Shown piece after piece: positions 17,187-29,190 of a DNA stretch of 29,552 nucleotides. The DNA comes from a virus. Its lineage: Duplodnaviria; Caudoviricetes. The notes below the pieces were generated by a model, which saw only the letters and a program-made list of their open reading frames with translations, did no database searches and was not told where the DNA came from. Both the position numbers and the translations under genes were made by a program. Each line of letters opens with the position of its first letter. Position 1 is the stretch's first letter. The stretch covers positions 1 through 29,552 of the IMG/VR virus record IMGVR_UViG_3300032227_001784. The stretch is one strand, 5' to 3'.

Positions 17187-17369
17187 ATGAAACAAGAATT
17201 GCATTCGGTGAGTGAACGAAGAAAAAATTTATTGGATGAGATCAGAGAAAATCAACTCTGGGGCAATATTCATCGAGCGGCTCTAACCAATCCCGCTTTA
17301 CAAGAAGCCCTGGAACGTGTTAAAGTAATATATTATTTGAGTAAAGAAAATGGCCGCAGCAAAACTTGA
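17187..17369 (+). CDS. Small hypothetical protein
   Basis: 60-aa helical ORF filling the gap in a tightly packed operon. Confidence 0.6.
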   Translation: MKQELHSVSERRKNLLDEIRENQLWGNIHRAALTNPALQEALERVKVIYYLSKENGRSKT

Positions 17370-17814
17370 TATCAAACGAGAACTGGCAGCAGTAGACACA
17401 CGAAATTACGATTTCTATGACAATCTCACTCCAGAAGAACAGAAAGCCTTTAGTCCCTATATACTGATGCGTTATGTATCAAATACCACAGGCGATCGTG
17501 ATATACAAGAATGGTATTTGGAAAATACCAATGAATTTGTCAATAAGAATCATTGGACACTAAGTAAAAATCATAAATCTCTATTGTGGAAATTGTTTGC
17601 TGCCACCGGGGGTGGATCATCAACATATCATCCCTACATGGCAGCAGGCAAAAAGGAAAAAGTCAGCAAATTTGAAAATCTACTGGCGGAAACATATCCT
17701 GCCAAAAAGATAGAAGACATTAAATTGCTGGCCAGTCTAATGACTCAAGAAGAACGACAGGAATTTTTTGATAACCTTGGGTTTGATAAAAAACAAAGGA
17801 AAGAATATGAGTAA
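17350..17814 (+). CDS. Putative clamp-loader small subunit (T4 gp62-like)
   Basis: KAFSPYILMRYVS resembles the gp62 Y.PF...R.LS segment; size and replication-operon context fit. Confidence 0.45.
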   Translation: MAAAKLDIKRELAAVDTRNYDFYDNLTPEEQKAFSPYILMRYVSNTTGDRDIQEWYLENTNEFVNKNHWTLSKNHKSLLWKLFAATGGGSSTYHPYMAAGKKEKVSKFENLLAETYPAKKIEDIKLLASLMTQEERQEFFDNLGFDKKQRKEYE

Positions 17815-18031
17815 AGAAACTGATATATTTGATCACAAACAAATTAAAAAAGTGAATATTGATTTCAATGACGGCCATTGGAATGCCAAAACACACTATA
17901 TGATTGTGACATACAATACAGACTCCCCGGTGGGAATTTCTGCTAAATTAGTTCCGTACTATCAAGAAACAGAAATAACAGATGTGTCATTGGCCGAATC
18001 AATACTGAATCAATTTAAAATCCATAAATGA
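17807..18031 (+). CDS. Small hypothetical protein (start revised from 17768 to ATG 17807)
   Basis: SD AAGGA before ATG 17807, which overlaps the upstream gene end; 3' end coupled to the next gene. Confidence 0.6.
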   Translation: MSKETDIFDHKQIKKVNIDFNDGHWNAKTHYMIVTYNTDSPVGISAKLVPYYQETEITDVSLAESILNQFKIHK

Positions 18032-18723
18032 TATCACCGGTGAATCAACCTTTTAATTGTGTTCACTGCGGCACAAGTTTCATGAAAGAAAAAACTCTCA
18101 TGGCACATATGTGCGAGAAAAAGCGTCGTGCCATGCAGCGTGATGAAAAACGAGTGCAGGCCGGGTTCATGGCATTTAATCGTTTTTGGCAATTGACACA
18201 GGGTGCCAAAAAACTCAAGACCTATGAGGAATTTTGCGACAGCAGTTACTACAACGCCTTTGTAAAATTTGGCAGTTTTGTCAACAATGTCAATCCACTA
18301 TATCCAGATCGCTTTGTAGATCATGTGATCAAAAGTGGAGTTAAATTGGACCATTGGTGTAGAGATGAACTATACGACACTTATCTATATGACATGTTGA
18401 AAATTGAACCGGTAGAAAGTGCTGTGGAACGCAGCCTAAAAACCATGATGGAATGGGGCGACGAGCAAAATGCTGAATTTGCTCATTATTTTAACTATGT
18501 CAGTTTAAGTCGAGCAGTATATGATATACGCAATGGAAAGATCAGTTGCTGGATGGTATTAAATTCATCCAGTGGCAAAGATATGATCAGTAAAATGAGC
18601 GACGAACAACTGGAAATGATTGCTCCTGCATTTGATGTGCCTTATTGGATTAAAAGGTTTAGAGAATTACCAGCAGATGTTGCTTTGGTACGAGAAATAT
18701 GTGATGAGGTGGGAATAAAATGA
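18028..18723 (+). CDS. Zinc-finger protein, possibly gp59-like helicase loader
   Basis: N-terminal CVHCGTSF...LMAHMC zinc finger; helical remainder weakly resembles gp59. Confidence 0.55.
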   Translation: MISPVNQPFNCVHCGTSFMKEKTLMAHMCEKKRRAMQRDEKRVQAGFMAFNRFWQLTQGAKKLKTYEEFCDSSYYNAFVKFGSFVNNVNPLYPDRFVDHVIKSGVKLDHWCRDELYDTYLYDMLKIEPVESAVERSLKTMMEWGDEQNAEFAHYFNYVSLSRAVYDIRNGKISCWMVLNSSSGKDMISKMSDEQLEMIAPAFDVPYWIKRFRELPADVALVREICDEVGIK

Positions 18724-19076
18724 GATTAGAAGGTTTTGTAGAAAAAGGGTGGGGACACGAATTAATTTGGGCCACCAATGACAAGTATTGTGGAAAATTA
18801 TTAAAGTTTAACAAAGATGCCAGATTCAGCATGCACTTCCATGCTGAAAAAGATGAAACTTGGTATATATTAGATGGGCGTTTTGAAGTTTGCTGGATTA
18901 ATACCCGGGATGCTACTACGGATAGACGTGTTCTAAATGCTGGAGATACTTGGCGTAATGAGCCGCTATTCCCTCACCAAGTAATTTGTATTGAGTCAGG
19001 AACCATTATTGAAGTCAGCACACCCGATAGTGTAGAAGATAATTATCGAGTAGGCAAGGGTGATAGTCAGAAATGA
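18720..19076 (+). CDS. Cupin-fold protein (sugar isomerase/epimerase-like)
   Basis: KGWGHE, cupin motif 1 SMHFHAEKDETWYILDG, motif 2 PLFPHQV, IEVST. Confidence 0.85.
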   Translation: MRLEGFVEKGWGHELIWATNDKYCGKLLKFNKDARFSMHFHAEKDETWYILDGRFEVCWINTRDATTDRRVLNAGDTWRNEPLFPHQVICIESGTIIEVSTPDSVEDNYRVGKGDSQK

Positions 19077-19846
19077 AAATTTTAATTACAGGGCATCGAG
19101 GCTTTATCGGAAAAAATTTAGTAGAATATCTGAAAGATCACGAATTGTCTTTTTATGAACCAGGTGATGCTCTTCCGTCAGTAGATGGGTTAGATTGGGT
19201 AATTCACCTGGGTGCGTTGACATCCACTACTGAAACAAATGTAGAATTGGTACTTGAAAACAACTACGACTTTAGTAGATGGTTAGTCAATGAATGTTTA
19301 AAATACAATGTAAATTTTCAATATTCCAGTTCTGCCAGTGTATACGGACAGAATAAAGACTTTAACGAAAATTCTCCTGTGAATCCCCAAAGTCCCTATG
19401 CTTGGAGTAAGTATCTATTTGACAGATATATAACACACACAGCAGGTAATTGGCCTATTAAAGTACAGGGATTTAGATATTTCAATGTATATGGCCCCCA
19501 TGAGGATCACAAGGGCAATCAAGCAAGTCCTTATCATAAGTTTGAAAAACAGGCCAAAGATACTGGTGTAATAAAACTGTTCAAAGGCAGTGACAAATTC
19601 TCCAGAGATTTTGTGCCAGTCGAAACAGTTTGTAAAATACATAAACATTTTTTAGGTGTATCAGAAACTGGAATTTGGAATATAGGTACCGGACAGGCCA
19701 CTTCATTTGAAAATGTTGCAAGAATGATTGCTGACAAATATAATGCACATATAGAATATATTCCTATGCCTGAAAATCTAAAACACCAATATCAGGAATT
19801 CACCTGCGCAGACGTGGGATTATTAAGAAAGCATTATGATATATGA
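19073..19846 (+). CDS. hldD: ADP-L-glycero-D-manno-heptose 6-epimerase
   Basis: ITGHRGFIG, SSSASVYG, YAWSK (YxxxK), HldD-type FRYFNVYGPHEDHKG, RDFV, YQEFTCAD. Confidence 0.88.
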   Translation: MKILITGHRGFIGKNLVEYLKDHELSFYEPGDALPSVDGLDWVIHLGALTSTTETNVELVLENNYDFSRWLVNECLKYNVNFQYSSSASVYGQNKDFNENSPVNPQSPYAWSKYLFDRYITHTAGNWPIKVQGFRYFNVYGPHEDHKGNQASPYHKFEKQAKDTGVIKLFKGSDKFSRDFVPVETVCKIHKHFLGVSETGIWNIGTGQATSFENVARMIADKYNAHIEYIPMPENLKHQYQEFTCADVGLLRKHYDI

Positions 19847-20238
19847 AAATATTTGTCAATGGAACCTTTGATATACTACATATAGGGCATTTAGGACTTT
19901 TAGAATACGCATATGATTTAGGCAAGATACTGACCGTTGCCATAGACAGTGATCGTCGTATTCAAGAATTAAAAGGTCCTACCAGACCCATACATACCGA
20001 ACATGAACGCAAAACCATGTTGAACTGTCTATACATGGTTGACAAGGTATATGTGTTTGACACTGACCAAGAACTGGTAGAACTAATTAAAAATCACTGC
20101 GATATCATGGTCAAAGGCAGCGATTATCGAGGTCGGCCTATTATAGGTGAACAATATTGTAAAGAGGTAAAATTTTATGAGCGAATTGAAAAATACTCAA
20201 CCACCGACACCATTCAACGTATTATTGATCGGCGATAG
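19843..20238 (+). CDS. Heptose-1-phosphate nucleotidyltransferase (HldC / RfaE domain II-like)
   Basis: NGTFDILHIGH (HxGH), DSD...LKGPTRPI, VKGSDY, STT. Confidence 0.88.
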   Translation: MKIFVNGTFDILHIGHLGLLEYAYDLGKILTVAIDSDRRIQELKGPTRPIHTEHERKTMLNCLYMVDKVYVFDTDQELVELIKNHCDIMVKGSDYRGRPIIGEQYCKEVKFYERIEKYSTTDTIQRIIDRR

Positions 20239-20947
20239 TTGTACCGATGAGTACTATATTGGGCACTGCGACAGACTAAGTCCCGAAGCACCTGTTCCGG
20301 TGATGAAAATTGTTGAGCATTACAATTTGCCCGGCATGGCAGGCAATGTACGATCTAATTTTACTGCACTTGGTATTGATGTTGAATATATTACCAATAA
20401 CGAAAACATTGTTAAAACTCGTTATATAGATCAACGGTCGGGACAACATTTATTACGTGTAGATTCTGAACCATATGTCCGCGAATGGGACGGCCTTACC
20501 TTATGTAAATTATTTGAATATGACGCTATTGTTATTTCAGATTACAATAAGGGATTTATCAACTATGAACAAATTGGAATCATACTGAAAGAATGTCAAG
20601 TTCCGGTATTCATAGACACTAAAAAAACCGAACTGGCTAGAATGAATGGCGCGTTTGTAAAAATCAACAGCAAAGAACACAGCCTGGCAAAAAGTTATTC
20701 AGACAACATGATCATCACACTGGGGGATCGTGGTGCCAGTTATCAAGGTAAGATCTATCCTGCTCCACGAGTAGAAGTCAGTGATGTGTGCGGTGCCGGC
20801 GATACATTCCTTGCTGCACTGACTTATCGATATCTCACAACTGGCGACATAGAATCTGCCATAGAATTTGCCAACATAGCAGGCAGCATCACTGTTCAAC
20901 ATCGCGGAAACTACGCACCTACCTTAGAGGAAATTCGTGGACATTGA
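20177..20947 (+). CDS. Heptose-7-phosphate kinase (HldA / RfaE domain I-like, PfkB family)
   Basis: IGD..D.Y..G...RLSPEAPVPV, GMAGNV, ISDYNKG, DVCGAGDTF; SD GAGG before ATG 20177. Confidence 0.9.
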   Translation: MSELKNTQPPTPFNVLLIGDSCTDEYYIGHCDRLSPEAPVPVMKIVEHYNLPGMAGNVRSNFTALGIDVEYITNNENIVKTRYIDQRSGQHLLRVDSEPYVREWDGLTLCKLFEYDAIVISDYNKGFINYEQIGIILKECQVPVFIDTKKTELARMNGAFVKINSKEHSLAKSYSDNMIITLGDRGASYQGKIYPAPRVEVSDVCGAGDTFLAALTYRYLTTGDIESAIEFANIAGSITVQHRGNYAPTLEEIRGH

Positions 20948-21503
20948 CATTGATTTTGCAGATAGAAATTCTGTTCTAGAAATCGTCCAGCATATCCCTG
21001 CCAGTCTTGATGGAACTAAACGACACAACACTGGAGTATATTGTCATGAAATTCCTGTTAATCCGCTAACAGGAACAGCCAGTATCGATTATAAGACTGC
21101 AGAATCTAGAGGATATTTTAAAATAGATTTTCTCAACGTCGGTGTTTATAAAGATGTTCGAGACAATGATCATTTAGAGTCATTAATGAATACCGAACCT
21201 CTTTGGGATTTACTGGAACAGGATGAATTTGTTGATTTGCTGTTTCATGTCAACGGACACGGATCAATACTACGCCAAATGAAACCAAAAAATGTAGAAC
21301 AACTCGCTGCGGTATTGGCCATGATCAGACCGGCTAAAAGACATCTCATTGGACAAGACTGGGATACTGTAATGAAGGAAATATGGGTCAAACCTGTCAA
21401 TGATGAATATTACTTCAAAAAGTCACATTCGCTGAGTTATGCCATGGTGGTCGTAGTTCATATGAATTTGATCTGTGAAAGCATCAGTTACGATTACTCT
21501 TAG
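20937..21503 (+). CDS. Miniature DnaE-like (family C DNA polymerase alpha) catalytic core
   Basis: GTG start with SD GAGG; DnaE motifs in order: DIDIDF, HNTGV, GYFKIDFL, LAMIRP, YYFKKSHSLSYA, all in 188 aa. Confidence 0.85.
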   Translation: MDIDIDFADRNSVLEIVQHIPASLDGTKRHNTGVYCHEIPVNPLTGTASIDYKTAESRGYFKIDFLNVGVYKDVRDNDHLESLMNTEPLWDLLEQDEFVDLLFHVNGHGSILRQMKPKNVEQLAAVLAMIRPAKRHLIGQDWDTVMKEIWVKPVNDEYYFKKSHSLSYAMVVVVHMNLICESISYDYS

Positions 21504-21867
21504 GTACTCTGACCAGCTGAATACTTTTTCTTTTCACACGTTTTTCTGCTATTTCGCTGAGATTTACAATAGGACCAAAAATAACCTCAACATCCTTGCT
21601 GTTGAATGTTTTGATCACATAGCGAAACACCGTCATTTCATTTTTTAAAAAAATATTTATAGGTATTCGTCTATTGCTTTCCCACCACCATACATCACCA
21701 AGTTCTAAGAAGTGATTTTTCCCCGCATCATCTTTGATAATTGATATATCATATATACTGACCACATATGAATCAAAATTAATGATAATTCCTACATATT
21801 CTATTTCGTTGGATCGAATACAGGATATAAAAGGATAGTTGGCCCGAAACTGGTTGTGTATACTCAT
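21484..21867 (-). CDS. Hypothetical protein
   Basis: 127-aa ORF filling the gap, convergent with mini-DnaE; WWWESNRRIPINIFL segment; minus-strand TATAAATA 40 nt upstream. Confidence 0.75.
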   Translation of the reverse strand: MSIHNQFRANYPFISCIRSNEIEYVGIIINFDSYVVSIYDISIIKDDAGKNHFLELGDVWWWESNRRIPINIFLKNEMTVFRYVIKTFNSKDVEVIFGPIVNLSEIAEKRVKRKSIQLVRVPKSNRN

Positions 21868-22734: not shown

Positions 22735-23727
22735 GTGGACTTCCCATCGACAATATTATCTCTAATACCAGGACGGCGTAAACCTACACCCAGCGGCTGG
22801 TTGAGTTTTAACTCGGTCTGCTGCCATCATAGAGGACAAGCACCGGATACACGCGGGCGCGGCGGCATATTGATGACCGCCGAAGGTGGGTTCACTGTTC
22901 ACTGCTTTAATTGCGGATTCAAGGCCGGATGGAATCCAGGCCGACTGCTAACCGCCAACACCAAAAGATTATGTCAGTGGTTGGGTATGGATGCCGACAC
23001 TATTGGCAAATTGACACTGGAACTGATGCGTCAACAAAATTACACAGCACCGACAAAAACTCTGTTGAATTTTGCTTTGGAAGATAGAGAATTACCACCC
23101 GATACTCGTACATTGAAAGAATGGGCATTGACCGATCCAGAAGAACCTGTGATAAAAATGTTTGAATATCTAATCACCAGAGGCATGAATATAGATTGGT
23201 ATCCTTGGATGTGGTCTCCTGCAGATGGATATAGAGATCGACTAATCATACCATTTTATCACGATGGACGCACGGTGGGGTTTACTGCCCGTAAAATTGT
23301 ACCAGGCAAACCAAAATATCTAACCACAAGCCAACCTGGTTATGTGTTTAATCTGGACGCACAAACTGCCGACTACAACCGCAAATATGTTATAATAGTG
23401 GAAGGACAGTTTGATGCTATTGCTGTGGATGGTGTGGCCATAATGAGCAATGAGCCTAGTGAAAATCAAGCAGCAAGAATTACCGCATTAAATAGAGACA
23501 CCATTGTTGTACCCGACCGAGATGCTGCCGGTGCTGCTATGATTAAATCTGCATTAGACCATGGATGGTCAGTCAGTATGCCGCCATGGGAGTCACATGT
23601 TAAGGATGTAGCCGATGCTGTATGTCAATACGGCAGACTCTACACAATGGCCACTATATTACACTATAGAGAAACTAACCCTATTAAAATTCAACTACTA
23701 CACAAGAAACTGTCTAATGCTAACTAA
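22735..23727 (+). CDS. DNA primase (T4 gp61/DnaG-like)
   Basis: Zn domain VCCHH...HCFNCG; RLIIPF...GFTAR...PKYL; TOPRIM IVEGQFDA, VPDRDAAG, KDVAD. Confidence 0.92.
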   Translation: MDFPSTILSLIPGRRKPTPSGWLSFNSVCCHHRGQAPDTRGRGGILMTAEGGFTVHCFNCGFKAGWNPGRLLTANTKRLCQWLGMDADTIGKLTLELMRQQNYTAPTKTLLNFALEDRELPPDTRTLKEWALTDPEEPVIKMFEYLITRGMNIDWYPWMWSPADGYRDRLIIPFYHDGRTVGFTARKIVPGKPKYLTTSQPGYVFNLDAQTADYNRKYVIIVEGQFDAIAVDGVAIMSNEPSENQAARITALNRDTIVVPDRDAAGAAMIKSALDHGWSVSMPPWESHVKDVADAVCQYGRLYTMATILHYRETNPIKIQLLHKKLSNAN

Positions 23728-25162
23728 AACACTCAAGCCCAACTATAATTTTGATGTACAGAAAGAATTTCTGGAACTGTTTTTAGGTGATGCTGAAACT
23801 TTCATGCGTTGTCAAAATATCTTTGACTCGGCAAACTTTGATCAACGATTACAACAGGCCGCCGAATTTATTACCCTATATGTAGATAATTATCGAGTCA
23901 TGCCCACAGTATCTATTGTGAATGCCAACTGCGGAACCGAATTCAAAGCAACCAGTGTGGCCAAAGAAAACTACGAATGGCTAATGGATCACTTTGAACA
24001 GTTCAGTAGACACAGAGCATTAGAGCGGGCCATTTTGTCCAGTGCTGATTTGTTAGAAAAAGGTGATTATGGTCCTGTGGAAAAACTCATCAAGGATGCT
24101 ATACAGATCAGCTTGAACAAGGACATGGGCACTGACTATTTTGAAGATCCTAGAGAACGACTGACCAAACTGAAGGACGGTAATGGACAAGTCAGCACAG
24201 GTTGGCCTACCATAGACAAAAAACTCTATGGAGGATTCAATCGCGGCGAACTGAATATTTTCTGTGCCGGATCGGGTGGTGGTAAGAGTTTATTCCTGGC
24301 CAATCTTGGAGTGAACTGGGCACTGGCCGGTCTCAATGTTCTGTACCTAACATTTGAGTTGAGTGAAGGACTGGTCAGTATGCGACTGGATTCCATGACC
24401 ACAGGTATCTCGACTCGAGAGATTTTTAAGAACATTGACGACGTTGAACTCAAAGTAAAAATGGTAGGAAAACGTGCCGGGAACCTACAAGTCAAGTATA
24501 TGCCCAGTGGAAAAAATTGTAATGATATTCGCGCCTATTTGAAAGAATATCAGGTCAAAAAAGGCGTAAAACCCGACGTATTATTAATAGATTACCTGGA
24601 TTTGATGATGCCTTTAAGTGTGAAGGTCTCGCCCAGTGATTTGTTTGTTAAAGACAAATATGTATCAGAAGAGATCAGAAACTTGGCTATGGAGACACAA
24701 TGTGTCACAGTGACAGCCAGTCAGTTGAATAGATCGGCAGTGGAGGAGATTGAGTTTGATCACAGCCATATTTCGGGTGGACTCAGCAAGATCATGACAG
24801 CAGACAATGTGATTGGTATCTTTACCAGTCGTGCTATGAAAGAACGGGGTCGCTATCAAATACAGTTTATGAAAACTCGCAGCAGCAGTGGTGTGGGACA
24901 AAAGGTAGATTTGGAATTTAACTTAGACACTCTACGTATCACCGACTTGGGTGAAGAGGAAAGCGAGCCCAGTTTTAGAGAACAATCCAGCAATGTAGTG
25001 AATAATCTCAAACGAACCAGTGTGGTTTCCACTGCCAGTGGAGGATTAGATGATGTTGATCCTAATGCAGGAATTGGATTCCGCAAACCCATAGCCAAAG
25101 CTGCTGCCCAGGCTCCGCTGATTCGTTCTATGATGACCAAATTAAATCCCGAAAAGGATTAG
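23717..25162 (+). CDS. Replicative DnaB-family helicase (T4 gp41-like); start revised from 23615 to ATG 23717
   Basis: STGWPTID..LYGG, Walker A AGSGGGKS, LTFELSE, LIDYLDL, TASQLNR, KTR; ATG 23717 gives an 11-nt overlap with primase. Confidence 0.93.
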   Translation: MLTKTLKPNYNFDVQKEFLELFLGDAETFMRCQNIFDSANFDQRLQQAAEFITLYVDNYRVMPTVSIVNANCGTEFKATSVAKENYEWLMDHFEQFSRHRALERAILSSADLLEKGDYGPVEKLIKDAIQISLNKDMGTDYFEDPRERLTKLKDGNGQVSTGWPTIDKKLYGGFNRGELNIFCAGSGGGKSLFLANLGVNWALAGLNVLYLTFELSEGLVSMRLDSMTTGISTREIFKNIDDVELKVKMVGKRAGNLQVKYMPSGKNCNDIRAYLKEYQVKKGVKPDVLLIDYLDLMMPLSVKVSPSDLFVKDKYVSEEIRNLAMETQCVTVTASQLNRSAVEEIEFDHSHISGGLSKIMTADNVIGIFTSRAMKERGRYQIQFMKTRSSSGVGQKVDLEFNLDTLRITDLGEEESEPSFREQSSNVVNNLKRTSVVSTASGGLDDVDPNAGIGFRKPIAKAAAQAPLIRSMMTKLNPEKD

Positions 25163-25725
25163 AAATAATAGTCAACTAAAAACTTGGTGCTTTGTTCTAA
25201 TGCTGCTTGCCATTGCTGTTCGAGCGGAACTGAAAATACTATTTCAAGAGTAGCTGGCATTATTTGCCATCTATAGGGAACAGGACACTCGGCATATAAT
25301 TTAGGATCTAACATTTGATTCAGCATCAGGTTGTCCCACCACCAATGCCCTGCACAGGCCTTAAAATACTCCGGGCCTTGATTTTGAGCTATGGCTGCTA
25401 ATACACTGATATCATTGGTTACTCCGATATCATCAGTGAGCTGGACAGTATTGACAGAACTCCAATCTAAACTGTGAATCATATGTATTTTGTCAATATT
25501 GGTATTACCGCCGTAGAATACAGGATGACTGGTATCAAACTCTACACCAAGATTTTTACTAATGGCAGCTAAATCCAACTCAGGAGACAGCTTGCTAATT
25601 TGCAACCCTATAGCTATGTTATCTCCATGCGTAGCTACTAAAACAACTGACCGATCTCCTAGATTATCCTTGGGATTACTGGGATTTGACACCATAAGGT
25701 GGCCTAAATAATTTCTCTTAATCAT
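25159..25725 (-). CDS. YqgE/AlgH family protein (DUF179); start revised to 25725
   Basis: RSVVLV..H...AIGL.I.K, PVFYGG, MIHS, AGHWWW...L; minus-strand TAAATA(25731-25736)-N5-ATG(25725). Confidence 0.8.
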   Translation of the reverse strand: MIKRNYLGHLMVSNPSNPKDNLGDRSVVLVATHGDNIAIGLQISKLSPELDLAAISKNLGVEFDTSHPVFYGGNTNIDKIHMIHSLDWSSVNTVQLTDDIGVTNDISVLAAIAQNQGPEYFKACAGHWWWDNLMLNQMLDPKLYAECPVPYRWQIMPATLEIVFSVPLEQQWQAALEQSTKFLVDYYF

Positions 25726-25730
25726 AAACA

Positions 25731-25749
25731 TATTTAATCCTAATAAATA
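25731..25749. promoter_or_regulatory. Back-to-back divergent late-type boxes
   Basis: TAAATA on - (25731-25736) and on + (25744-25749), 7 bp apart, 5 and 7 nt from their ATGs. Confidence 0.65.
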
Positions 25750-25756
25750 TTAGTCT

Positions 25757-26458
25757 ATGAAATTATCACAGGTCATTGCTCCTGCTATAGAGCTACACAG
25801 CACACTTAATCCGCAATTATGGTCTGGAGAAAAACTACGACCGGAAGTACGTTCTGCACTAATAAAAATTGCCCGGTCATTTCAAAAATTTGTCGATGTG
25901 CCTTTTCAAGTTGAAGATATCATTGTTACAGGCAGTAACGCCAACTATACTTATACCAAATACAGTGACCTTGATCTACACCTCATAGTGGATCTCAGTC
26001 GTGTAGAATGCGAGCGTCAAACAGAAGAACTATTTGATACTAAACGATTACTGTTTAAACGCAAACACTCAATTACTATACGAGATATACCTGTAGAAAT
26101 CTACGTGGAAAATATCAATGAGCCAGTAAAAGGTGCTGTATATAGTTTATCTAAAAATAGTTGGATCACTCCCCCTGAACAACAAGATCAACCCGACATA
26201 GACTTTGCTGCTGTAGAACGCATGACTCGTATATGGGGCAGATTAATCCAACGTGCTGTAATACATGCTCACCTGCCCACTTGTGAACGACTAATGGAAC
26301 TACTAAGAAACTACAGACGCATGGGATTGAATACACCGGACGGTGAATTCAGCAAGGGCAACCTAGTCTACAAGAGCCTACGCAACAGCGGCAGTGTAGA
26401 AGCACTGGCCGTGATGTTAGACCGACTACATGATCAGCGACTAAGTATTAGTCAATAA
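25757..26458 (+). CDS. Pol-beta superfamily nucleotidyltransferase
   Basis: IIVTGSNANY...SDLDLHLIVD (hGS...DxD), third carboxylate in PVEIYVE, helical C-terminal domain with GEFSKGNLVYKSLR. Confidence 0.82.
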   Translation: MKLSQVIAPAIELHSTLNPQLWSGEKLRPEVRSALIKIARSFQKFVDVPFQVEDIIVTGSNANYTYTKYSDLDLHLIVDLSRVECERQTEELFDTKRLLFKRKHSITIRDIPVEIYVENINEPVKGAVYSLSKNSWITPPEQQDQPDIDFAAVERMTRIWGRLIQRAVIHAHLPTCERLMELLRNYRRMGLNTPDGEFSKGNLVYKSLRNSGSVEALAVMLDRLHDQRLSISQ

Positions 26459-27037: not shown

Positions 27038-28375
27038 ATGAGAATCGACGATTTAATTTCTATTATTCAACTGGCAGGTATAAAAAGAACTGTCTCTGAG
27101 GCCGGCCAAGAAGAGGTTGGGCGTCAAGATGCTGTCGCTAAATTAAAAAAATTAACCGCACCCGATCCTATGGGTGGCGGTAATCATGCTTATGTGGATC
27201 CAAAAACTGGCACTATCATGTATAGCGGAAATGCAGGCGGTGAGGGCAACCCTTCCCCTGTAGGATCGGCAAAACAGTGGAACGATCCTGAAAACGCCAC
27301 TGCTATTGTGGGGCGTGACTTAAAAAATTTACTAAAACAAGCAGGATTACAGGTTACTGCAGATGCTAAGGGTAATGCTCGGGTCGATCCAACTGCTTTT
27401 GCTAATTTAGGTAAGGCACCTGCAGCAGCATTACCGACAACCCCTACAATTGTTCCTGGACCACCGGGCTCGGCAACGGCCATTCCCCCTCCCGGACAGT
27501 CATTAGGGGCAGCATTGGCTTCGGGTAATGAACGTGATCCTAATAGTGGTAATCGAGTAAATGCACAACAGGCAGCCGCTGCAGGAGCTACCCCGGCTGA
27601 AATAGCTGCCGGAAACCCACCAGGCACTAATTTGTCTACTCCAACTGGAAACCCACCAGGCACTAATTCGTCTACTCCAACTGGAAACACATCAATGGCA
27701 GGTGCGGCTGCATGGAGACCACCTGCTGCACCAAATACCGATGTAAGTTCCAGAGCCGACTACGAAGGGGATGTCAACCCTAGCAGCGGTGGCGGCAAAC
27801 CGGCAATGCCAAACTACTCTCAAGATGCAGCCGCTAAGAAAAAAAGACAATTAATGCCAGTTGACCCGGCATTGAAACAAGTTCAATCATTACTATCAAC
27901 AATCCCTCAACTTAAAGAATTGCTCGGCCCATACGGAGCAGATGGTAGAATGGGAAAACATACTAGAAACGCTATTACAACATATCTACAGACTCATCCT
28001 GATGATGCTGCAGAGCCTGCATTCAAAGCTATTCTTGACAAATATAAAATACCAGTTCCAAACGCAAAACCACCAACACCAGAAAAGCCAGCAGTACCAC
28101 CAACACCAGAAAAGCCAGCAGTACCACCAACACCAGAAAAGCCAGCAGTACCACCAACACCAGAAAAGCCAGCAGTACCACCAGCAGTATCAGGTGATCA
28201 GAAAGTAGGCAGAGTAGACCCCAGACCCCCCTATAACCCAAGAAACCCGGGTCCGGCGCAGGAATGGGATAAGAAATACAGTGCTACACATCATACAAAT
28301 GGTACACCAAAAGCAGCTAAAACCGAAGACATTGAGTTAGCAGACCTTATTAGACTGGTGGAAAAATTAAAATGA
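27038..28375 (+). CDS. Pro/Ala/Gly-rich putative virion protein with peptidoglycan-binding domain
   Basis: LKQVQSLL...GADGRMGKHTRNAI fits PG_binding_1 (Q..L...DG.hG..T..A); N-terminal IIQLAGIK and VSE-A; internal tandem repeats. Confidence 0.7.
   Translation: MRIDDLISIIQLAGIKRTVSEAGQEEVGRQDAVAKLKKLTAPDPMGGGNHAYVDPKTGTIMYSGNAGGEGNPSPVGSAKQWNDPENATAIVGRDLKNLLKQAGLQVTADAKGNARVDPTAFANLGKAPAAALPTTPTIVPGPPGSATAIPPPGQSLGAALASGNERDPNSGNRVNAQQAAAAGATPAEIAAGNPPGTNLSTPTGNPPGTNSSTPTGNTSMAGAAAWRPPAAPNTDVSSRADYEGDVNPSSGGGKPAMPNYSQDAAAKKKRQLMPVDPALKQVQSLLSTIPQLKELLGPYGADGRMGKHTRNAITTYLQTHPDDAAEPAFKAILDKYKIPVPNAKPPTPEKPAVPPTPEKPAVPPTPEKPAVPPTPEKPAVPPAVSGDQKVGRVDPRPPYNPRNPGPAQEWDKKYSATHHTNGTPKAAKTEDIELADLIRLVEKLK
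27611..27688 (+). repeat. 36-nt in-frame tandem duplication (GNPPGTN[L/S]STPT x2)
   Basis: 27611-27646 and 27647-27682 differ at one base; a third copy begins with GGAAAC. Confidence 0.9.
28070..28177 (+). repeat. 27-nt perfect tandem repeat x4 (PPTPEKPAV)
   Basis: CCACCAACACCAGAAAAGCCAGCAGTA four times with no spacers. Confidence 0.95.
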
Positions 28376-29190
28376 GACAATCCAGAAGAAGAACAACTCC
28401 AGTAGTTTATACACAGCCTAAGACTACAGCAATATCTGAGGCTACTCGTATTGCTCTGCTGAGAGATCAACTGGATAGACTGACCGAAGCAATTACTATT
28501 AATTATAATGGTTCTCCACCGGCATCGGCACCGGGTGGCGGTGTTATCCAAGGCGTGGATGGACGACCATTAAGTACAAGTGCAACACCACCGGCCGGAG
28601 CAGCACCAGCATCATCACCGGCAGCAGCAACTAACAGCACCTGGAAACTCATAGCAAAAAAACTAGGAATAGACACAGCCGAGAAACTGTTAGGATTTGC
28701 AGGAAAAATACTTCCAAAATTTATTCCTGCTCTGGCTGCAGGTATCTATGGCCCACTGGCAAAAAAAAGATGGCATGAAGGTGACAAGGAAGGCGCATTT
28801 CTTGCTGCAGCACAGGTAGCCGGGGGTGTCATAGCACTGATACCTTTTGTAGGTCTACCTACTAGTTGGGCTATTACAGCTATGGTTCTTGCCTGGGAAG
28901 CAATGAGAGATACTCCAGAAGGTAAAAAGATTGAAGCACAAGCCGAGCAGGCAGCGGCAGCAGGACCCAGTGGCCCAAGCGGAGCAACACCGGCACCAAA
29001 GCCAGCTGAACCAAAAGCAGCTGAACCAAAGCCAGCAGAACCAAAAGCAGCTGAACCAAAAGCAGCTGAACCAAAAGCAGCTGAACCAAAGCCAGCTGAA
29101 CCAAAGCCAGCACCTCCTCCGGAAAAAGGACCAAACCCCACTGGTGGTATTGGAAAAATAGACTGGTCTAAACTTAAACCTAACCCTTAA
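28372..29190 (+). CDS. Putative virion protein with hydrophobic helices and PK(A/P)AE repeats
   Basis: ATGA-coupled to the upstream gene; ISE-A and LTE-A sites; hydrophobic GDKEGAFLAAAQVAGGVIALIPFVGLPTSWAITAMVLAW. Confidence 0.7.
   Translation: MRQSRRRTTPVVYTQPKTTAISEATRIALLRDQLDRLTEAITINYNGSPPASAPGGGVIQGVDGRPLSTSATPPAGAAPASSPAAATNSTWKLIAKKLGIDTAEKLLGFAGKILPKFIPALAAGIYGPLAKKRWHEGDKEGAFLAAAQVAGGVIALIPFVGLPTSWAITAMVLAWEAMRDTPEGKKIEAQAEQAAAAGPSGPSGATPAPKPAEPKAAEPKPAEPKAAEPKAAEPKAAEPKPAEPKPAPPPEKGPNPTGGIGKIDWSKLKPNP
28996..29112 (+). repeat. 15-nt tandem repeat x7 plus a partial copy (PK[A/P]AE)
   Basis: Mainly CCAAAGCCAGCTGAA and CCAAAAGCAGCTGAA units. Confidence 0.93.

Follow-up and report, generated by a model that had tools for sequence, protein, structure and literature searches.

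What does a reading frame of 188 codons that carries the catalytic aspartates of DNA polymerase III alpha (DnaE) do in a large T4-like phage, and can its product work alone? The question is raised by the gene at 20937-21503 of the DNA analysed here (the window, 29,552 nucleotides), a 29.5-kb fragment of such a phage in a contig that is 8% complete. Among the 24 window ORFs scanned, the T4-like core is represented by gp32, UvsX, UvsW, DnaB and a DnaG-type primase, and no family B polymerase was found. A promoter and terminator scan of the window gave no signal exceeding shuffles. We think that the gene product, hereafter the C unit, is likely the C-terminal unit of a split minimal Pol III alpha, as predicted from sequence in 2021 (available part of PMC7824862). 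Our best explanation, to which we give a probability of roughly 0.55, is that it is the Asp-bearing half of a miniature family C polymerase that would add a few dNTPs before the family B replicase.

The gene and its active-site motifs are as follows, with counts over the 87 full-length representatives described below.

20926..20931, plus strand: Shine-Dalgarno-like AGAGGA, 5 nt ahead of the GTG at 20937
20937..21503, plus strand: likely C-terminal unit of a split minimal DNA polymerase III alpha, 188 aa, PHROG 11778
20940..20948, plus strand: D2-I3-D4, first two catalytic aspartates (E. coli D401, D403), each in 85 of 87
21120..21128, plus strand: K62-I63-D64 (E. coli K553, D555), with the third catalytic aspartate; K62 and D64 in 87 of 87
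21327..21338, plus strand: R131-P132-A133-K134, where RP is E. coli R639-P640 and K134 is family-specific; R131 in 86 of 87, K134 in 78 of 87
21408..21440, plus strand: Y158-Y168, fingers motif, with H164 (E. coli H760) as presumed steric gate; H164 in 84 of 87

Assignment of the short gene to family C polymerases

The frame is intact on the plus strand from GTG to TAG, and its start overlaps the final 11 nt of the upstream hldE-like kinase gene. Five motifs succeed each other: DIDIDF (residues 2-7), HNTGV (30-34), KIDFL (62-66), LAMIRP (127-132) and YYFKKSHSLSYA (158-169). An earlier note on this DNA had reported DnaE-order motifs in an intact frame with a Shine-Dalgarno sequence and a coupled start, and frame and coordinates confirm that description.

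PHROG 11778, annotated 'DNA polymerase', matches residues 1-182 of the C unit at E 1e-67. The Pfam match of the window protein is weak (PF17657, E 0.009), NCBIfam gave no match, and the best result of a PDB sequence search with the single protein was E 0.07. Residues were mapped with a C-unit family profile of 104 rows as query and E. coli DnaE (NC_000913.3) as reference. Three blocks were obtained: residues 1-15 on E. coli 400-416 (weak alone, E 0.04), residues 28-134 on 509-642 (E 6.6e-7 and probability 92% over 35-134), and residues 156-173 on 752-769 (E 2e-4). Because of this three-block alignment, D2, D4 and D64 are equated with the catalytic triad D401, D403 and D555. K161 occupies the position of E. 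coli N757, where 85 of the 87 representatives have K or R. E. coli H760, the counterpart of H164, has been modelled as a steric gate (available part of PMC8485763), and the C unit thus holds both the Asp triad and the steric-gate histidine of the family C active site.

The AlphaFold2 model of the C unit has a pLDDT of 95.4 and a pTM of 0.87, and a Foldseek search with it returned Pol III alpha or DnaE at ranks 1 to 14 and PolC at rank 17. Scores were modest (three of the DnaE entries at E <= 0.001, TM by query 0.35-0.51), as would be anticipated for a fragment that has lost inner parts. According to the block alignment, the thumb region and most of E. coli residues 643-751 are gone from inside the protein, which confirms the earlier proposal that the inner regions are shortened and the gene is not plainly truncated. 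The C unit has no thumb, clamp motif, HhH or OB part, and no clamp motif was found among 119 C-unit proteins. The loss of PHP, most of the thumb, clamp-binding and OB domains that had been claimed was likewise borne out: these domains and the chain of about 1000 residues or more of full-length DnaE are not found in this 188-aa protein without NCBIfam match. Its description as a palm-plus-fingers enzyme held in part, since the Asp triad and the fingers motif are there but the palm is not whole, its GRGS part (E. coli 320-393) being absent. Weak partial matches to Streptomyces phage proteins annotated as DnaE-like polymerases (12 of the 38 listed) were not counted as family members.

A conserved gene or a remnant

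At least 8000 clusters match the C unit, with lengths of 103-329 aa, and 94 of the 135 matching phage records hold full-length relatives of the window protein, including Atu_ph07 (55% identical), RaK2 (42%) and Paride. Conservation was counted on the best 150 representatives at 50% identity; the 87 of 175-225 aa were used, while length excluded the other 63, of which 61 are shorter and probably partial and 2 longer. Besides the residues listed above, H30 is kept in 84 of the 87. D2 and D4 are lacking in two rows, whose N-termini are unrelated or missing.

A DnaE remnant in decay, or a scaffold without catalytic activity, would agree with the loss of several DnaE active-site arginines (see below). 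However, the triad is nearly invariant down to about 33% identity, the best 119 matches all measure 186-204 aa, and six of ten pairs with the window gene give a dN/dS of 0.05-0.10, the other four not being computable as synonymous sites were saturated. The C-unit gene is under purifying selection and is not decaying. Neutral decay was thus rejected on conservation and dN/dS, and a catalytically dead or decaying protein appears highly improbable. The checks on dN/dS, length and aspartates that the earlier note had suggested all speak for a conserved gene under purifying selection, and neither neutral decay nor variable truncation was seen.

A probable partner encoded elsewhere in the genome

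The GRGS part is carried by a second phage protein, the N unit, of 169-177 aa, matched by 7391 clusters. It ends WGVGRGSS...EFLK and aligns to E. coli DnaE 320-393. It stops at or just past EFLK, and its end at E. coli residue 393 lies seven residues before the start of the C unit, which begins at the first Asp. The first approximately 90 residues of the N unit (L088:1219-1752 and relatives) match no Pfam family and could represent either what is left of a PHP domain or a new domain; a TIGR00594 match extends further N-terminal only in Phosso. In the relatives' genomes TIGR00594 found the N unit only, plus the C unit in G001, and PHP and HHH_6 were each found in none of five.

The window's own contig, being 8% complete, does not contain the N unit. 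Nine complete or near-complete relatives were examined (Phosso, Paride, RaK2, Atu_ph07, Slicko01, RsoM2USA, SCTP-2, G001 and G003), eight of them picked for the C unit and one for the N unit, and the N unit, the C unit and a family B polymerase occur together in all nine. The complementary DnaE fragment and the gp43-type enzyme that were to be looked for are therefore both present in 9/9 near-complete relatives and neither in the 8%-complete contig. Family B polymerase was found in 10/10 relatives, the tenth being G002 (82% identity), which is 46% complete and has a C unit without an N unit; no C unit was found in seven fragmentary contigs of 15-70% completeness that had been selected by their N unit. 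These eight fragments are too incomplete to count either way. Moreover, the genus counts of C and N matches in the phage collection nearly coincide: Escherichia 34 and 34, Pseudomonas 11 and 11, Klebsiella 11 and 10, Erwinia 8 and 8, Salmonella 8 and 8, Xanthomonas 4 and 4, Yersinia 4 and 4. The two genes lie approximately 4 kb apart in RsoM2USA, approximately 11 kb in Slicko01 and more than 160 kb in both Phosso and G001. Of 25 N-unit loci, 24 have a GroES-like gene after the N unit and 20 an RFC-like gene. Both unit genes are also carried by Sharanji, a cultured phage of E. coli K-12. Alishewanella phage Slicko01 (L125, 141 kb) is not a jumbo phage; it has both units, and its family B matches lie in two adjacent frames.

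Further information was obtained from natural fusions. The 375-aa protein P0341 consists of an N unit (hhalign probability 99.8%) followed by a C unit. Two more metagenomic clusters, P0391 and P0392, are 78-81% identical to it with identical build, so that a single assembly error is unlikely; all three (ENA and Logan, 375-376 aa) keep DnaE order. P0341 matches DnaE models unbroken across the junction (residues 92-206), which is almost gapless against DnaE. The fold predicted for P0341, with an alignment deep only in the N half, was uninformative (pLDDT 47.7, pTM 0.39). A quick tree was made from 65 C units, roughly half of the representatives, with the thorough search unfinished. It groups the three fusions in a single clade (SH-aLRT 100), nested in a larger clade (99) with eight stand-alone proteins. 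This would agree with a re-fusion of recent date, unless the root of the tree is at this place. No fusion locus was found among viral contigs.

Natural fusions in DnaE order support a heterodimer, and on co-occurrence, fusion and homology we infer that the two units bind each other; a heterodimer of N and C units is very probable. A miniature polymerase formed by the 188-aa protein without any partner would be in line with its three aspartates on one chain and with its confidently predicted fold. We nevertheless consider this very unlikely, given that the GRGS/S364 motif is on the other gene, that the N unit co-occurs in 9/9 and that fusions exist. The position of the GS motif in the partner also makes unlikely the stand-alone repurposed nucleotidyltransferase that the earlier note had offered as an option. 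Joining of the two halves by intein splicing was rejected, as no intein halves are present.

Genomic context and the heptose genes

Context was compared over 84 loci, some of them near-duplicates, and counts are limited to loci with enough flank. The neighbours in the window are:

18720..20947, plus strand: cupin, hldD-like epimerase, hldE-like adenylyltransferase and hldE-like kinase genes, all under curated cut-offs
21484..21867, minus strand: 127-aa gene (PHROG 11637), convergent, overlapping the C-unit stop by 20 nt; in 75 of 75 loci with at least 600 nt downstream
22735..25162, plus strand: primase and DnaB-like helicase genes, fixed downstream in 47 of 47 loci with at least 5 kb downstream

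The C-unit gene sits between the uvsX-uvsY-uvsW block and the primase-helicase genes. In the 51 loci with at least 7 kb upstream, genes like those at 17350-17814 and 18028-18723 were always found upstream, and uvsW in 50. The first of these (plus strand, 154 aa) may, by resemblance, be a gp62-like clamp-loader small subunit; for the second no family was found in the ESM Atlas. The 127-aa convergent gene, with no family in Pfam or the ESM Atlas, is a candidate partner or a mere fixed neighbour. Replacement of the primase by the C unit was rejected, as the window primase keeps its EGQFD and DRD motifs, and the gene order may reflect synteny of the core block, not partnership with the primase.

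Further along, an AlgH-like (DUF179) gene follows dnaB on the opposite strand (25159-25731, minus). A 233-aa Pol-beta-family nucleotidyltransferase (25757-26458, plus; PF01909, PHROG 36119) is found downstream of dnaB in 28 of 47 loci. In-frame tandem repeats with periods of 36, 27 and 15 nt lie at 27611-27688, 28069-28183 and 28995-29111, in two Pro/Ala-rich ORFs.

The cassette at 18720-20947 (cupin, hldD-like, split hldE-like) was gained or lost piecemeal among close relatives. Upstream of the C unit in the 51 loci, the cupin gene is present in 14, the hldD-like in 9, the hldE-like adenylyltransferase in 14 and the kinase in 13; hld genes are absent from five loci of 81-85% identity (L007-L011) and from 4/4 cultured phages checked. 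The heptose cassette is a variable insert that does not belong to the system. In the window the C-unit gene is translationally coupled to the hldE-like kinase gene, which could suggest that the C unit works with the ADP-heptose genes, for instance in sugar-nucleotide transfer. However, with hld genes upstream in just 9-14 of 51 loci, the functional heptose link raised by the earlier note is unsupported; such a role is extremely improbable, and the position of the C unit beside these genes looks incidental.

A possibly altered triphosphate pocket

In E. coli DnaE, R390, R396 and R709/R710 are presumably ligands of the dNTP triphosphate. The position of R390 is Glu in 120/120 N units, and Glu or Asp, never Arg, in 25 further N-unit loci. 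No conserved equivalent of R396 precedes the first Asp, and the stretch bearing R709/R710 is shortened from approximately 110 to approximately 21 residues. The DnaE triphosphate arginines thus seem to be lost in the split polymerase. Conserved K134 and K161 may have taken their place, or may point to another chemistry. For the ligand role of the arginines our literature search found no supporting paper, including the available part of PMC5872134; for PolC, the available part of a review (PMC9224347) gives two arginines, a tyrosine, a lysine and a serine as ligands. Both units are acidic, with median net charges of -5 and -10, and this is not favourable to the binding of a duplex.

These features bear on the main rival explanation, in which the heterodimer has been repurposed, with its triphosphate pocket rebuilt, into a template-independent or non-DNA nucleotidyltransferase acting in end tailing, protein or RNA nucleotidylation or short-oligonucleotide synthesis. 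The missing thumb and duplex-binding parts, the Glu in place of R390, the lack of R396, the shortened R709/R710 region, the family-specific lysines, the acidity of both units and the approximately 90 N-terminal residues of the N unit without a Pfam match would all be compatible with it. On the other hand, the equivalents of H760, K553 and R639 are kept, the fixed context consists of replication and recombination genes, the N unit precedes a GroES-like and usually an RFC-like gene, and the new lysines may just substitute for the lost arginines. We regard this explanation as possible but doubtful. More unlikely still is a family C core turned to another chemistry at the fork, such as template-free or protein-primed synthesis without duplex copying; the pocket would then be rebuilt and the thumb absent because a DNA duplex is no longer copied. 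If that were true, thousands of phage lineages in aquatic habitats would have retained such a core, and a one-gene route to demonstrate it would be offered by the fusion.

Proposed function of the split polymerase

We hypothesize that the C unit pairs non-covalently, without splicing, with the separately encoded N unit of approximately 175 residues, and that the two chains would form one Pol-beta-fold active site. As the thumb is absent, the enzyme would be distributive and non-processive, and H164 would give it a preference for dNTPs. Its substrate could be an RNA primer made by the primase, or a 3' end from recombination or at a gap, held by partner proteins. A few dNTPs would be added to existing 3' ends at the phage fork and the family B replicase would then take over; substrate and hand-over are proposed by analogy to Bacillus subtilis DnaE. 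Template-directed short-patch DNA synthesis is somewhat better than an even bet, while primer extension as the specific role is put forward tentatively.

If approximately 360 residues in two chains make DNA, they would define the minimal family C polymerase, and the retention of a second enzyme beside the T4-type replicase would be explained. The natural fusion and the cultured phage Sharanji make this large family easily testable.

Comparison with known systems

With bacterial DnaE (E. coli, M. tuberculosis, T. aquaticus) the C unit shares the Asp triad, K553, R639-P640, FxKSH with H760, and the fold. It differs in its length (188 against 1160 aa), in the absence of PHP, thumb, clamp motif, HhH and OB, in having the GRGS motif on another gene and in the apparent loss of R390, R396 and R709/R710. 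B. subtilis DnaE extends primers and hands over to PolC (available parts of PMC3664799 and PMC5627055), and the phage enzyme would likewise be a family C polymerase that accompanies a different main replicase, together with primase and helicase; this is a functional analogy only. B. subtilis DnaE is full length, whereas the main replicase here is of family B. Cyanobacterial DnaE is intein-split and encoded in two genes. In contrast, no intein half is visible in the phage proteins and both halves are also miniaturised.

The closest system is that of group 2.2 jumbo phages, for which Iyer et al. (2021, PMC7824862), in the part available, described a minimal Pol III alpha made of two proteins, the N-terminal one binding NTP and the C-terminal one binding Mg and the template. 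Their genes are distant and stand beside a family B polymerase, and cooperation in the synthesis of one strand, or repair, was suggested as the role. Our literature search, in which subscription papers were thinly covered, found no later study or bench activity test of the split polymerase. Fused forms, Slicko01 and the lost arginines are not mentioned in the main text of PMC7824862, and its figures or supplement may do so. The relatives' genomes share with that system a minimal catalytic module in two distant genes with family B alongside and, as far as PHP, HHH_6 and TIGR00594 were searched, no other Pol III domains. The proposal of the earlier note that the protein is one subunit of a split polymerase is supported by the partner family, the co-occurrence and the fusions, and had been published from sequence. 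As judged from the available part of PMC7824862, no essential difference separates the window gene from the group 2.2 split Pol III alpha, of which it is a further example.
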